This document shows positions 3,684-15,413 of a DNA stretch of 64,000 nt, one piece after another. Source of the stretch: a virus (taxonomy: Duplodnaviria; Caudoviricetes). The stretch's first letter is position 1. Each line of letters starts with the position of its first letter. Below the pieces are notes generated by a model that saw only the letters and a program-made list of their open reading frames with translations, had not been told where the DNA came from and searched no databases. The stretch is taken from IMG/VR virus record IMGVR_UViG_3300014000_000001, positions 64,001 through 128,000 of that record. One strand, written 5' to 3'. The translations under genes and the position numbers were made by a program.

Positions 3684-5846
3684 ATGATTCTATTTATGGA
3701 TGATTGGAAAAAATATCCAGATGCAATTGTAGATACCAAAACCAATAATCGATCCTATCTACGTCTTGCAAAAATGCTTCAACACATGAAGGTGAAGAAC
3801 TGCGTATTTCATCTTGCGCTATTACAACCTGAGCTGCAAGGGGTTGATCCATTTGACCCTAATCTCACCATTGATCAAGTGGTGATGATCAAAGAAGAAA
3901 GCATAAAAAATCCTTGGTATTTTTTCCGTGAAGTTATTCGTCTCCCACCAGCATCTGGTGAGGATTCGGTTTATTTCGATATTAACCGCGGTGCTTTAGC
4001 GGCGTGGTGGTGTTATTTATCTCATCAAGATTATAACTTAACGATGCCTCGACAAACAGGTAAATCAACCTCAACGAACGTCTTATTGGTATGGTTGTTA
4101 TTTGTGGTTTATCGCAAGACTCGTGTCTTCTTGTTAACTAAAGATAATACCCTACGTACAGAGAACGTTGAACAAATTAAGAAGATTCAAGATCTTCTAC
4201 CATCGTACATGAATCCAAAGACTCGCGAGGATTTAAGTAACACCCAAACCATCACTTGTGCGAAATATGGTAATCGCTTATTCACAGGGGTACCACAAAA
4301 CTCTGAAGCCGATGCCAACAAGATGGGTCGTGGTTTAACTTGTGCGACTTACGTGACAGACGAAGGACCCTTTATTAAGTACCTTGAGAAGTCTTTACGT
4401 TCAATGCTTGCAGGTGGTACCAAAGCCATGCCAATGGCTGCTAAGAATGGATTACCTTATGGTGCGATCTATACCACTACTGCGGGTTCTAAAGCAGATG
4501 TGGATGGCGCGTACTATTATCGCATGATCATGGGTGGAGTCCCTTGGGATGAATCTTATTTCGATCTTAAAGATGATGTAAGTCTTCGTGATACGATTAA
4601 GAAGAACAAACGCGGCGTTCAATCAATTGTTAATATCACCATGAGTCACTTGCAGTTAGGTTATGATGATGAATGGTTAAAGGCTGCAATTGAACGTACG
4701 GGTGTAACTGGAGACGATGCAAACAAGGACTTCTTTAATGTGTGGTCTGACGGTTCAATGGAATCTCCTTTAGCCAAAGTATTGACCAACTTGATTCGTG
4801 CTTCTGAGCAGGAACCTGATTACATTGAATTCACCAAAGACAACTACGCAATCAATTGGTATATTCCAAGAGACAGTATAGAACGTCGTATGGCGGATGG
4901 GAAATACATTATCGGACTCGATCCATCACCTGTGATTGGTAAGGATGGTATTGGTATGTTCATGATTGATTCTAAAACCATGGAAACCATCGCTACCGTT
5001 GCGGTGAATGAAACCAACATCTTGAAGTTTGTGGATTGGTTATGCTCGTTCATGCTTAAATACGAGAACACGATCATCATTCCAGAACGTCGTGGAGGTG
5101 GTGAACATATCATTGCTGGTTTATTGATTGCCTTTACTGCTAAGCGTATCGATCCATTTAAACGGATTTATAACGTAGTTGTGAATAAAGGAGAACATAC
5201 TGATCCAGAAGGTAAGCGTTTAATCAATGATGTTCGTAATCGTCCAGATGCTGCAGATAAAGCAGTTAAGTATTTTGGATTTGCAACATCAGGTTCAGGT
5301 ACACACTCGCGTGAAGGATTGTACGATATGTTGACACGTGCTGCGAGTTACTCTGGACCAATATTGAAAGATAAACAAACCATTACTGAAGTATTAAGTT
5401 TAAGTAAGCGTAAAGGTCGCATTGATCACAGCATACTTGGACATGATGACTGCGTAATTGCGTGGTTACTCACTGTATGGTTCTTAACGAATGCACGTAA
5501 TTTAGATTACTACGGTGTTCACTATCCGATGTTTGAAGCTATTGATCATGTAGCTAGAATGCGTGTAACCAATCAAACTGCCGATAATGTCCTTGCACAG
5601 GATGTATTTAAAAAGGCTGCTGAACAAAAACGTATCCGCGATAAGATCAATGAGTATTTAGACTTAATTAAATCCACCTCTGATGAAATTCTCATCTTAC
5701 GTTATGAAGCTATGTTGAATCGTTTAGATGGTCAATATGAACGTGAAGACAATGAAGTACGTTCTATGGCTGAACTTATTATTCAAGCGAAAGAAGAGAA
5801 GAGAAACAAAAACAATAAATATGGGGGTTTGAAGAAGGCGGGGTAA
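3684..5846 (+). CDS. terL: Terminase large subunit
   Basis: Walker A MPRQTGKS, Walker B YVTDE, nuclease IIGLDPS and HDDCVIAW; start 3684 (MILF) preferred over 3663 because of the upstream TAGGT RBS. Confidence 0.93.
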   Translation: MILFMDDWKKYPDAIVDTKTNNRSYLRLAKMLQHMKVKNCVFHLALLQPELQGVDPFDPNLTIDQVVMIKEESIKNPWYFFREVIRLPPASGEDSVYFDINRGALAAWWCYLSHQDYNLTMPRQTGKSTSTNVLLVWLLFVVYRKTRVFLLTKDNTLRTENVEQIKKIQDLLPSYMNPKTREDLSNTQTITCAKYGNRLFTGVPQNSEADANKMGRGLTCATYVTDEGPFIKYLEKSLRSMLAGGTKAMPMAAKNGLPYGAIYTTTAGSKADVDGAYYYRMIMGGVPWDESYFDLKDDVSLRDTIKKNKRGVQSIVNITMSHLQLGYDDEWLKAAIERTGVTGDDANKDFFNVWSDGSMESPLAKVLTNLIRASEQEPDYIEFTKDNYAINWYIPRDSIERRMADGKYIIGLDPSPVIGKDGIGMFMIDSKTMETIATVAVNETNILKFVDWLCSFMLKYENTIIIPERRGGGEHIIAGLLIAFTAKRIDPFKRIYNVVVNKGEHTDPEGKRLINDVRNRPDAADKAVKYFGFATSGSGTHSREGLYDMLTRAASYSGPILKDKQTITEVLSLSKRKGRIDHSILGHDDCVIAWLLTVWFLTNARNLDYYGVHYPMFEAIDHVARMRVTNQTADNVLAQDVFKKAAEQKRIRDKINEYLDLIKSTSDEILILRYEAMLNRLDGQYEREDNEVRSMAELIIQAKEEKRNKNNKYGGLKKAG

Positions 5847-6242: not shown

Positions 6243-6885
6243 GATAGATGGGGAATATATTTATCTTGCTTTAACTGAAGCAGAGTTACGTAGTGTGCTT
6301 GAAGACATGGTTGAATGTGGAGATCTTCTTTCTCCACAAATTGAGATCGTGGATAATTGCGTACGTTTTAGGGATGCAGACATTAAGATGATGCAACCTG
6401 AATTGTTTTTTGGTAAAGCAGAACCACACATTAAAATGGATATGAAGTTATGGAAGACTGCTGCGATATTTAATGTGGTCATGTTATTTTTATTTATGTT
6501 GATCTATTATTTCTCCGCAGGTAATTTAGATATTGGTCACCGATGGTTGATCTTCTGTGGGGTAATGTGCGTTGCTAACAGTTGTGTGTATTTGTATTTA
6601 GATGGAGAGAATAAGGAACGTCATCGTAAAGCGTTGTATGCTAAAGCTAGGTTAGTAAGTTATTTTAACGCTACTGTGCAAATGGATATGACCACCTCTA
6701 ATAGCCGCTTAGATCGCTCTAGAGTGCGATTAGAAAAAGAGTATGAGATTGTCAAGCAAATGTTTCAAACCTTGTTAGAACAACAACCTAGTGAGGTTAA
6801 AGCACGATACAAAGATAACCTCTATCCAGATGGTGATCCTGTTTACGAAAAGACTGATGACATAAAACCAAAGAACCTCTCCTAG
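6226..6885 (+). CDS. Hypothetical membrane protein (2 TM)
   Basis: Two hydrophobic segments; ends in a terminator hairpin. Confidence 0.65.
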   Translation: MKQRIRIDGEYIYLALTEAELRSVLEDMVECGDLLSPQIEIVDNCVRFRDADIKMMQPELFFGKAEPHIKMDMKLWKTAAIFNVVMLFLFMLIYYFSAGNLDIGHRWLIFCGVMCVANSCVYLYLDGENKERHRKALYAKARLVSYFNATVQMDMTTSNSRLDRSRVRLEKEYEIVKQMFQTLLEQQPSEVKARYKDNLYPDGDPVYEKTDDIKPKNLS

Positions 6886-6897: not shown

Positions 6898-6932
6898 CCT
6901 TATGCAGCTTTTCATTAATCTCAATTTATTTC

Positions 6933-13228: not shown

Positions 13229-13903
13229 ATGCAAACAACGGTGAAAACTAAATCGTCAATCAAACCAAAATGGGGTAATAATCAAAAGCAATCAGTGTTT
13301 ACAGAAGCTGAAGTTGCTGAGATTTCACAGTACATGAATGAGCTTCGTTTAAGTGCTTTGAAGCTTAACTTCTTACAATGTGCGCTTATAAACACTGATC
13401 CATCTCTTGCTCGTTGGCTTCATGCTAAAGGTTTTAATACTTGGGTAAAAACAGGAAATCAACGTAATGGGAAAACACTATTAACTACTGCTCAGTTGAA
13501 AAATTTAGAAGTGGGTGAACAAGTCGTTCTAAACTTATTCAATAGCGATGAGAAGTTAAATGGCAAACTGTTCATTGAAGCGTTGGGGGATCGTCGCTAC
13601 TTGATTAGTGATGTTATTGCTGAACATCGTTATAACAACTTATATCAACGTGGTTTCTACCCTGACAAGATGTGTAATACAATTTACAATGTATGCATAA
13701 AAGGTAAAAAGGATATTACTTCTTCTCGTAATCCTGATTTCGTACATGCCTTTGAATACGTCCGAAACGTAGCTCGACAAAAACAAAAAGAATTCAATAC
13801 TCAATTTGAAGAATGGAAACAAACTATATCTGAACCAACCATTGAATTACTTCGTGAAATCAACCAAGCAGATTTCGAGTTGAAAAAATTAAATGCAGCA
13901 TAA
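13229..13903 (+). CDS. Hypothetical basic protein
   Basis: AAGGA RBS before MQTTVK; palindromic terminator at 13909-13934. Confidence 0.7.
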   Translation: MQTTVKTKSSIKPKWGNNQKQSVFTEAEVAEISQYMNELRLSALKLNFLQCALINTDPSLARWLHAKGFNTWVKTGNQRNGKTLLTTAQLKNLEVGEQVVLNLFNSDEKLNGKLFIEALGDRRYLISDVIAEHRYNNLYQRGFYPDKMCNTIYNVCIKGKKDITSSRNPDFVHAFEYVRNVARQKQKEFNTQFEEWKQTISEPTIELLREINQADFELKKLNAA

Positions 13904-13940
13904 ATGATAATAAGGTACCCTAGGGTACCTTATTCTATGC

Positions 13941-14114
13941 TCATGCTTCAGCTAACTTATGTGTAATTAAAAGAACTTCCCCACAAAAATTAAAGCCCAT
14001 CTTAAGGACTTGCTTGTGTTCTTTCTTGGGTATTACTCGCTTGGTGGATCGTTGATCTTGTTCAACATGATTAAACTTCTTAGGTGTTGCAGTTTCAATC
14101 AATACAGAGTTCAC
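13941..14114 (-). CDS. Small basic hypothetical protein
   Basis: AAAGGA RBS before a GTG start within the 75-aa ORF; converges on the 13909 terminator. Confidence 0.4.
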   Translation of the reverse strand: MNSVLIETATPKKFNHVEQDQRSTKRVIPKKEHKQVLKMGFNFCGEVLLITHKLAEA

Positions 14115-14267
14115 GACATATCCTTTTTTGTGTGCTTCTTGCCTAAAGAAGCTAGAGCAGGCCCCCACTCTAGCTTTGGTCTTAACTGGATTATCTCAAC
14201 CTTCCAGGCGGCTGGGTACATTAAAACTACTAATATACTCCGATCATATAAATATAGCAACAGCATA

Positions 14268-14582
14268 AAAAAAAACACTGACTACCCACGGCAAGAGGGC
14301 AGTCAGGGCTGATTGATCGAACAATTGATCAAAGGAGAAAGAGGCCTCCCGCATCAATGCAAAACTCTATATCGCTCATTCGGCTGTGAGTTCTGGTGAA
14401 TTGGGAGGTTGGGGCTTGATTAGAGGTTTCCCTCTTTTCAATATCGAAAGGTTCCAACCGATCGACAAAGGGCTCACATTTAAGAGCACACTAAGTACCC
14501 ACCCCAGAGAAGGTCTTATAGTAAGCATTGTTATGTACTTATTGCCTTGGACGCCTACTGGGATGGGAAACTGTTTTATTCC
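14268..14582 (-). ncRNA. Putative structured non-coding RNA (~320 nt), family unknown
   Basis: GC-rich intergenic island; several stems pair through G-U wobbles only on the minus strand; GAAA tetraloop hairpin; ends in an intrinsic terminator with U8. Confidence 0.6.
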
Positions 14583-14601
14583 ATATAATACATGTTTTTA
14601 C

Positions 14602-14622
14602 AGATATACATAATCTATGTGA
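14602..14622 (+). promoter_or_regulatory. Putative early promoter
   Basis: AGATATACATAATCTATGTGA, identical to the 9087 copy. Confidence 0.75.
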
Positions 14623-14651: not shown

Positions 14652-15413
14652 ATGAAAATTGCAACAGCGCAGAACTCTAAACCTATTCGTAAAGAATTGC
14701 AAGCTCACTTTAAAAAGTTGCTTGAAGATGGTGAACAACCCATCTCTACGAAGAATATCTTTGGTAATACATTAGCTGAAAAACCTGAATTAAGAGAACT
14801 ATTCTTCAATGAGCATGATCTTAAGAATCAAATGTATATTCATCTACATTCTCCTCACATCACCACCCGGGAAGAATTCGATGATTTATTGAAAGATCTT
14901 AAAGAGCATACGGAATATGAGGCATTAGATGTCTTGATTGGAAATATTGATTGCTTAGTTTATTCTAAGTGTAATGTGTTAAATGAAAACACCATTATAC
15001 AAATGAAAGCGTTACATTTAGGTAACAATGTAGATAACCATTGCGTGGAACATAATATCTTCATGGGTGCTGAAATTCGCACTTACCATATGTTTGATAC
15101 CGATACTGGGCGCAAACGCTTCTTGGGCTTTAGCACAGCTTATGGTGGGGTAGACGACACTACACTATGTTTATACTTAGATGAAAAGATCTTTCGTTTA
15201 ATTCAGCTGGTAATTCCAGGCGTGCGAGTATATAAAACCTTTCGAGAGGAGATTAGCAATATACACCCTATCAAATTACTAAGTCCAATGCGGGTGGTAC
15301 ATTATCCTATCGCTAGTAAAGGATATCGTGAACTATTTAAGTTTGTGAAACACCATTATGGTAACGAGCTACCAGCTCGCTGTATCAAATACATGAATTT
15401 AAAATCTATTTAA
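14652..15413 (+). CDS. Hypothetical early protein
   Basis: ACAGAGGT RBS before MKIATAQ (true start 14652, not 14592). Confidence 0.75.
   Translation: MKIATAQNSKPIRKELQAHFKKLLEDGEQPISTKNIFGNTLAEKPELRELFFNEHDLKNQMYIHLHSPHITTREEFDDLLKDLKEHTEYEALDVLIGNIDCLVYSKCNVLNENTIIQMKALHLGNNVDNHCVEHNIFMGAEIRTYHMFDTDTGRKRFLGFSTAYGGVDDTTLCLYLDEKIFRLIQLVIPGVRVYKTFREEISNIHPIKLLSPMRVVHYPIASKGYRELFKFVKHHYGNELPARCIKYMNLKSI

Follow-up and report, generated by a model that had tools for sequence, protein, structure and literature searches.

The 64,000-nt window analysed here is taken from a 232.8-kb IMG/VR virus record with an estimated completeness of 86%, of which it spans bases 64001-128000. The chimallin (nuclear shell protein) encoded by this phage is just 22-27% identical to the chimallins of known phages, which places it as a deeply diverged nucleus-forming jumbo phage. 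Almost all of its genes are oriented on the plus strand, and the locus under study is a 663-bp stretch (13935-14597) bounded on one side by a palindromic, putatively bidirectional terminator and on the other by a plus-strand promoter motif. The upstream plus-strand gene ends at 13903, immediately before the palindrome, which is perfect and spacer-less. As the plus-strand units end and restart around the locus, the stretch between both elements lies outside the plus-strand transcription units. The two boundary elements are:

13909..13934, both strands: palindrome AATAAGGTACC-CTAGG-GTACCTTATT, a putative bidirectional terminator closing both the plus-strand operon and the minus-strand module
14598..14617, plus strand: promoter motif TTACAGATATACATAATCTA, predicted to drive the gene at 14652-15413; a boundary mark, outside the RNA described below

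The plus-strand motif consists of TTTCAGATATAYATWATCTA followed by nGTGAA, and 29 copies of it were found in the genome at ≤5 mismatches. Around 25 of these 29 precede plus-strand genes, placed 20-60 nt before the start codons, and the genes behind the motif have start codons preceded by an (ATT)ACAGAGGT ribosome-binding site. The motif is also present, with the same arrangement, in the two relatives described below, and it probably represents the early promoters of the clade, those used by the virion RNA polymerase. Copies in the window are located at 6929, 9083, 12160, 14598, 23635, 27424, 33965, 53673 and 58756, with more elsewhere in the genome. The copy at 14598-14617 serves the gene starting at ATG 14652, a start (253 aa) with AGAGGT 7 nt upstream that matches the pattern of the other genes; some gene callers place the start at ATG 14592 (273 aa), which lies within the promoter motif.

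The palindrome at 13909-13934 is found as the same element, and in the same place, in both relatives. Palindromes of this kind, perfect and spacer-less around a CCTAGG centre but with arms that vary, number 29 in the genome and sit at gene ends, those of the window being at 6870, 13909-13934, 16627, 22333, 26157, 30752, 33027, 44352 and 58335; in several of them the arms are AAAGGAG/CTCCTTT. Judged by their sequence, they look like bidirectional terminators with a CUAG loop. A pairing of GGGUACCUU with the arms of these palindromic terminators was considered and dropped, as the adjacent palindrome alone has that arm.

Relatives of the locus were retrieved through a HMMER profile search with the flanking 253-aa downstream protein, which detected two remote homologues with 34% and 28% identity, encoded in the contigs L014 and L015, respectively. 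Both contigs are syntenic with the window, in such a way that a run of plus-strand genes, the palindromic terminator, a small minus-strand ORF, a gap of ~550 nt, the plus-strand promoter motif and the homologous gene follow each other in the same order. In each of the ~550-nt gaps, the minus strand carries a clear homologue of the RNA. We refer to this RNA as RNA1; its length ranges between 306 and 321 nt across the three lineages as extracted, and is ~316 nt in the window when measured to the end of the U run, compared with 306-313 nt in the relatives. The core of RNA1 is one of the three best-conserved DNA segments in the 13-kb syntenic region, with 74-77% identity. Since its complex fold is kept by compensatory mutations while the neighbour proteins are ~30% identical, RNA1 is under strong selection.

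Several other searches for homologues were negative. Among GenBank phages, none was retrieved with the locus (blastn) or with either flanking protein (tblastn), and IMG/VR yielded no related loci with the flanking proteins, the chimallin or the three-lineage protein alignment as queries; a 30-mer of a related contig also had no match in IMG/VR. JGI metagenomes and GTDB genomes, searched at the nucleotide and protein level, gave no relatives, degenerate RNA patterns had no match in viral, metagenome and genome contigs, and word-index protein searches returned the phage's own clusters only. Two candidates were discarded as unrelated or irrelevant: a 43-kb high-GC phage from the IMG/VR search (L002), and P0018 from the profile search, a giant protein with cadherin repeats. 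A covariance model built on the three lineages (R2) found nothing at E ≤ 10 in the genomes of eight known chimalliviruses, LucasX, RTH11, Eowyn, KpGz_1, phiKZ, 201phi2-1, EL and SPN3US, and in the phage's own genome it detected a single copy (E 1e-43), with no paralogues of RNA1. RNA1 belongs to a small clade of jumbo phages that encode a chimallin (nucleus-forming) and had not been sampled before.

The transcript and the helices of its 5' part, all on the minus strand, are as follows:

14267..14582: whole RNA1 transcript, ~316 nt, delimited from folds, covariance-model matches and the layout common to the three lineages
14413..14582: conserved 5' core of 170 nt, helices P1-P6 with conserved junctions, from model matches, covariation and RNAalifold
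14498..14567: P1 enclosing P2 and P3, from covariation counts
14558-14567 with 14498-14507: P1, 10 pairs, five of them double-changed, 100% paired
14545-14548 with 14510-14513: P2 (AAGG/CCUU), nearly invariant
14536-14541 with 14522-14527: P3 (UAAGUA/UGCUUA), nearly invariant, with an invariant U-G pair
14472..14487: P4 hairpin, GCUC/GAGC stem with an invariant 8-nt loop UUAAAUGU, identical in the three lineages
14444..14465: P5 hairpin, with a conserved GGA-containing loop (GGU-UGGA-ACC)
14416..14441: P6, outer stem UUGA/UCAA and inner hairpin AGAGG-GAAA-CCUCU

A covariance model (R1) was built from the window sequence alone, over the core at 14413-14582 with 41 pairs assigned by us. This model scored 111.7 bits in L015 (E 4e-30) and 91 bits in L014 (E 3e-24), in both cases on the minus strand only. 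In the resulting alignment 95.9% of the cells of the 41 pairs are able to pair, and 12 of these pairs show compensatory double changes. The alignment used for counting covers three lineages and was fitted to the window-derived model, hence it leans toward the structure. Controls were made by sliding the 3' partners by 1-3 columns, which left between 0 and 2 pairs with double changes, and by column shuffling, in which none of 500 shuffles reached the observed value; both the gap between the real and the slid registers and the type of changes argue that the fitting bias is not the explanation. When RNAalifold was run on the R1-derived alignment without the assigned structure, the same helices were obtained, plus a short P0, with compensatory changes in 14 of 52 pairs.

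The changes are distributed over several helices. The sequence-only reading had proposed the stem CCCAUCCCAG/CUGGGGUGGG, which proved to be P1: it is replaced by CCCAUUGAGG/CCUCAAUGGG in a relative, and half of its 10 pairs carry double changes. The stem of P4 appears as GCUC/GAGC, GCCC/GGGC and GCCU/AGGC in the three lineages, with two of its four pairs compensatory. P5 shows A-U / U-A and A-U / C-G exchanges, and the window has a 2 × 2 mismatch where its relatives pair. The AGAGG-GAAA-CCUCU hairpin, also proposed beforehand, corresponds to P6, whose inner stem becomes AGGAAC/GUUCCU in L014 with three double changes and whose loop is GAAA, GUAA or UAAC depending on the lineage. The stem AGUAGGCGU/AUGCUUACU of the same reading is not conserved, and the relatives support P2 and P3 in its place. 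These two helices and P7 (see below) lack double changes, so their assignment relies on conservation. The junction UACCUUGUG was also considered as the partner of the 3' domain in a pseudoknot, and this was rejected, as an 8-bp match exists in L015 only, and it is unsupported in the window and in L014; in L015 (5700-5720 versus 5838-5846) the junction ACCUUGUG is complementary over 8 bp to CACAAGGU, located just before P7.

The minus strand of RNA1 has a folding energy of -105.1 kcal/mol, with a z of -4.6 with respect to dinucleotide shuffles, and that of the plus strand is -99 kcal/mol (z -3.3). In the alignment, 7 of 123 cells are G-U pairs, including the invariant U-G of P3, and the minus strand is favoured because these would be A-C mismatches on the plus strand. 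The strand proposed from the window sequence is thus borne out by the G-U pairs, and also by the orientation of the promoter block and of the terminator U runs. The absence of a credible ORF, stated in that reading too, holds in the three lineages, in which no ORF is conserved within RNA1; in L014, the ATG frame that runs for 50 aa in the window meets a stop after 3 codons.

The 3' part of RNA1, on the same strand, follows a different pattern:

14345..14409: P7, ACCUCC(C) at 14403-14409 paired with GGGAGG at 14345-14350
14351-14402: variable hairpin domain inside P7, unalignable in sequence and about constant in length
14331..14344: pyrimidine-rich tract CCUCUUUCUCCUUU, predicted to be single-stranded
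14313..14332: hairpin UUGAUC/GAUCAA ahead of the terminator, lineage-specific, with a different hairpin in each relative
14267..14306: intrinsic terminator, 10-bp stem CUGACUGCCC/GGGUAGUCAG followed by a U9 run

The 5' strand of P7, ACCUCC(C), is invariant in all three lineages, and its 3' strand is GGGAGG in the window, GGGAGGU in L015 and GGGGGU in L014, starting at nt 233 in all three. The pairing probability of P7 is high in the window and in L015, and in L014 a U-A pair is changed to U-G, a one-sided change alone. The stretch enclosed by P7 measures 52-61 nt across the three RNAs, and the stem AGAACUC/GAGUUUU of the sequence-only reading is located in this unalignable domain of constant length. 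The pyrimidine-rich tract is CCUCUUUCUCCUUU in the window, UUCCAGUUUUCUUUUCC in L015 and UCUAAUUCCUCUCU in L014, in such a way that its composition is kept and its sequence is not; its predicted probability of being unpaired is 0.83 in the window, and 0.61 and 0.78 in the other two RNAs. The terminator that had been proposed, CUGACUGCCC/GGGUAGUCAG plus a U run, is the third of five proposed stems to be confirmed, and each relative has in the same place a different G+C-rich terminator of unrelated sequence, also with a U run. A switch between P7 and an alternative P7', in which the tract would pair with GGGAGG and free ACCUCC, was dismissed, as it was no better than with shuffled tracts.

At the 5' end of RNA1 there is a putative promoter on the minus strand:

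14578..14592, minus strand: promoter block TGTATTATATG(G/T)AAT, with TATG at 14585..14582 and a putative transcription start at G 14582

Within this block, the window, L015 and L014 agree at 15 of 16 positions, and the flanks vary. The TATTATATG element that had been noticed at the 5' end of the RNA is conserved in all three as TATTATATG(T/G)AAT and resembles, as was suggested, the late TATG promoter of phiKZ. In the three phages the block lies back to back with the plus-strand promoter motif, 5 nt apart. The 13-mer TATTATATGTAAT has two exact copies in L014, one before RNA1 and another before unit 2 (see below), and this second copy argues that the block is a promoter and not a part of the RNA fold. 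A similar TAACATATGTAAT is found upstream of the tail sheath gene of the phage (phrog_3242). An extended TATATG-type motif was not enriched upstream of genes genome-wide (7 sites versus ~10 expected), and it was discarded as a general late promoter; because of this, the promoter class and the late timing rest on analogy. In phiKZ, the late promoter is TATG and transcription starts at its G (PMC4666361), and the TATG at 14585..14582 fits the phiKZ-type late (nvRNAP) promoter motif as defined there. By analogy, RNA1 would start at G 14582 and would be expressed late in infection.

Downstream of RNA1, the minus strand holds a second unit:

13941..14254, minus strand: unit 2, with a second TATG block, a structured leader, a Shine-Dalgarno (SD) sequence with GTG start, and a small ORF
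14242-14254, minus strand: second TATG block, between the RNA1 terminator and the small ORF
14145-14177, minus strand: terminator-like hairpin ending the unit 2 leader and preceding the small ORF in all three lineages
14112-14126, minus strand: SD and GTG start of unit 2
14114..13941, minus strand: small conserved ORF, 57 aa, GTG start

Unit 2 has the same composition in the three lineages: a second TATG block, a leader ending in the terminator-like hairpin, AAAGGAnAnGUCGUG and a GTG-start ORF of 56-60 aa. Its start differs between the ORF listing and the gene callers, giving 75, 57 or 93 aa. The encoded proteins are 37-42% identical across the three lineages and share the motif LKLGFKFSG.VLLI.HRL. 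In the AlphaFold2 model (mean pLDDT 69.5) the N-terminus is basic and disordered, and residues 36-53 form a confident beta-hairpin; the protein matched no Pfam family and nothing in the ESM Atlas. The conserved linkage is the sole hint that the small protein might work with RNA1.

RNA1 was compared with known families. In Rfam 15, no match at gathering score was found in the whole window, and none on RNA1 or on the RNAs of L014 and L015 at E ≤ 10; the families tested included 6S, RNase P, SRP, tmRNA, group I/II introns, pRNA, ROOL, GOLLD, riboswitches and T-box. ARAGORN detected neither tRNA nor tmRNA genes, whether in the window or across all 232.8 kb of the genome. The statement that the RNA lacks the hallmarks of tRNA, tmRNA, RNase P and group I introns therefore agrees with the searches, none of which assigned it to a known class. 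A group I intron was ruled out, as the locus lies between a terminator and a promoter and not in a gene, and the Intron_gpI family gave no match at E ≤ 10. A protein sponge, the other role suggested by the sequence-only reading, may still apply. Sponges of the CsrB/RsmZ type carry many looped GGA motifs; the P5 loop holds the sole GGA conserved in the three RNAs, so a CsrB-like design is not seen. The 86%-complete genome contains no gene for reverse transcriptase (RVT_1), Ro60 (TROVE), CsrA or Hfq, and RNAs of the retron, DRT or Y-RNA type were discarded on the lack of RVT_1 or TROVE matches in it.

Some phage RNAs resemble RNA1 in part. ROOL and GOLLD are complex multi-helix RNAs linked to phages and prophages that were recognised by covariation before their function. 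RNA1 is likewise a complex multi-helix non-coding RNA in a phage genome, but ROOL and GOLLD are 2-3 times longer and their models do not match it at E ≤ 10, and RNA1 is confined to one small clade. The pRNA of phi29 is a stand-alone structured RNA encoded by a phage and bound to protein, in which the secondary structure is kept and the sequence drifts; RNA1 differs from it in size and architecture, does not match the Rfam pRNA, and shows no link to a packaging motor. Our literature search retrieved no description of RNA1, and the studies published on jumbo-phage transcription describe only short sRNAs derived from 5'UTRs, of unknown function (PMC11512511, PMC8244752, PMC13282480). Among these, sRNA005 of 201phi2-1 and the phiKZ sRNA upstream of gp182 were found by ONT-cappable-seq (PMC11512511). 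Like RNA1, these phiKZ-like sRNAs are non-coding, belong to nucleus-forming jumbo phages and are conserved among related phages (PMC11512511). However, they are shorter than 250 nt and arise through premature termination in the 5'UTR of a tail gene (PMC11512511), whereas RNA1 has ~316 nt, its own putative promoter and terminator, and is located among small genes of unknown function; R2 finds nothing in the genomes of either phiKZ or 201phi2-1.

The sequence-only reading had described a novel phage RNA on the minus strand. The relatives in synteny, the conservation, the compensatory changes, the conserved promoter block, the terminators, boundaries that fit a transcription unit of its own and the absence of Rfam matches support this, and it is very probable that the minus strand from 14582 to 14267 is a real, conserved, structured non-coding RNA gene representing a new family, as opposed to a chance structure. 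With respect to its role, the reading that we favour, as a reasonably likely one, is that RNA1 is an independent gene for a ~316-nt structured RNA that acts in trans through its folded 5' core, probably bound to a protein, late in infection. The phage's own RNA polymerase would start it at the conserved TATG-type block, and transcription would stop at the strong intrinsic terminator. Selection would act on the 170-nt 5' core, with P1-P6, the invariant junctions and the invariant 8-nt loop, and then on the next helix, P7 (ACCUCC/GGGAGG), and the 3' third would be built to a plan with its sequence free, consisting of the variable hairpin of constant length, the pyrimidine tract, a hairpin and the terminator. 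In this view the fold of RNA1 would be what acts, probably by serving a phage or host protein as scaffold or decoy, and a conserved antisense seed would probably play no part. The mechanism as such, a folded RNA acting in trans via its 5' core and probably with a bound protein, appears somewhat better than an even bet, even when the identity of the gene is included in the claim.

An alternative in which RNA1 would base-pair with messengers was also weighed; it takes up the idea of the sequence-only reading and shifts its centre to the invariant element. In this proposal, the C/U-rich ACCUCC of P7, the ACCUCU of P6 and the tract would pair with SD regions (AGAGGT) of phage or host mRNAs, or the SD-like GGGAGG would bind 30S subunits, either form shifting translation late in infection. 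ACCUCC(C), invariant in the three lineages, equals the core of the 16S anti-SD; among the ribosome-binding cores of the phage, AGAGG is the most frequent (54 of 205 crude gene starts); CCUC appears 3-4 times per RNA versus ~1 expected; and a single-stranded pyrimidine tract, a hairpin and a U-tailed intrinsic terminator at the 3' end, with equivalents in L014 and L015, constitute the usual build of a bacterial base-pairing sRNA. The anti-SD-like tract that the window sequence had suggested does exist at 14331-14344 and is predicted to be unpaired, but what is kept is its pyrimidine composition alone, and the tract of L015 lacks CCUCU. Moreover, its pairing with ribosome-binding sites, also proposed, is barely better than that of shuffled tracts: the duplexes with the ribosome-binding windows of the phage have a mean energy of -8.0 kcal/mol versus -7.1 ± 0.6, within 1.6 sd, so the tract shows neither a conserved single-stranded seed nor complementarity beyond chance. 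The reading of RNA1 as a translational regulator is weakened by the fact that a different C-rich element, ACCUCC(C), is the invariant one, with a predicted place in the P7 stem, and that the alternative pairing that would free it does no better than with shuffled tracts. In sRNAs of the RsaE/RoxS type, which share with RNA1 the C/U-rich motifs complementary to the SD and a terminator with a U tail, the C-rich motifs are unpaired and are the most conserved part, whereas in RNA1 the prediction places the invariant ACCUCC in a helix and the free tract varies in sequence. Base-pairing sRNAs normally conserve their seed better than any other part, and here it is the structured core that is conserved best; in L014, besides, the SD-like strand is GGGGGU. 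Taken together, both forms of this explanation are unlikely. More speculative, and to be given little weight, is a variant in which RNA1 would be the RNA subunit of an unknown RNP acting on translation: ACCUCC would mimic the 16S anti-SD and be masked by GGGAGG in P7, and a protein bound to the core would expose it late, so that it would capture SD regions of early or host mRNAs or compete at the 30S subunit. If true, it would be a phage RNA reprogramming ribosome choice.

The other two alternatives deny that RNA1 acts in trans or that it is an RNA at all. As a cis-acting leader, RNA1 would be a 5' sensor, either riboswitch-like or a protein-dependent attenuator, and regulated read-through of its terminator would control unit 2 and the small protein. 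This would fit the order of core, variable "platform", terminator and same-strand downstream gene kept in three lineages, and the second terminator-like hairpin before the small ORF in all of them. However, inspection of the three lineages revealed no upstream sequence able to compete with either arm of the terminator, a second promoter block (exact in L014) is placed between the terminator and the ORF, the ORF starts ~150-210 nt past the terminator, and no known riboswitch or leader family matches, so we regard this possibility as a poor candidate. The last one is that the locus is not an RNA gene but a DNA-level element (an origin, a packaging site or a protein-binding site) or a plus-strand UTR, in which the helices would be incidental. 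The plus strand also folds better than shuffles, and RNA1 is known from sequence alone. Against this, RNA pairing is preserved by the compensatory changes, some of the pairs being G-U, which on the opposite strand would become A-C; in three lineages the terminator U runs and the promoter block point in the minus-strand direction; and the plus-strand promoter lies downstream of the region, so no plus-strand transcript should cover it. An origin of replication with a priming transcript was also dropped, as the cumulative GC skew shows no origin-like turn at the locus. We consider this last explanation very improbable.

The interest of RNA1 lies in its biological setting. In nucleus-forming jumbo phages, transcription takes place inside a protein shell and translation outside, and the non-coding RNAs of these phages are almost unstudied. 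RNA1 adds to them a family absent from Rfam, its reach being limited for now to three uncultured lineages, and provides a concrete object for asking about structured RNAs or RNPs in late gene control, ribosome capture and host takeover.

In a wastewater metatranscriptome (X14), assembled contigs cover just 14304-14498 within the 1.5 kb examined. X14 is not among the runs that contain the next 2 kb, and other runs of the same study contain small parts. As these contigs have a depth of ~4 and phage DNA is present in many runs, X14 allows no conclusion on transcription. The DNA of the phage is found in samples from wastewater, surfaces and air, and also in some isolate runs.

Ten strain variants of the phage (L003-L013, from ENA and Logan assemblies) were also recovered, and being >99.6% identical they are uninformative on pairing. 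The U run of the terminator (14266-14268) is 7 to 10 long among them, and over the rest of RNA1 a single SNP was found across the ~10 strains, at 14384, in the variable domain. Finally, a 13-kb contig of a more abundant related phage, from the wastewater run X1, contains the palindrome of 13909-13934 and a 37/40 match to 14578-14617, separated by 673 nt; this contig is probably a fourth lineage with the same module.
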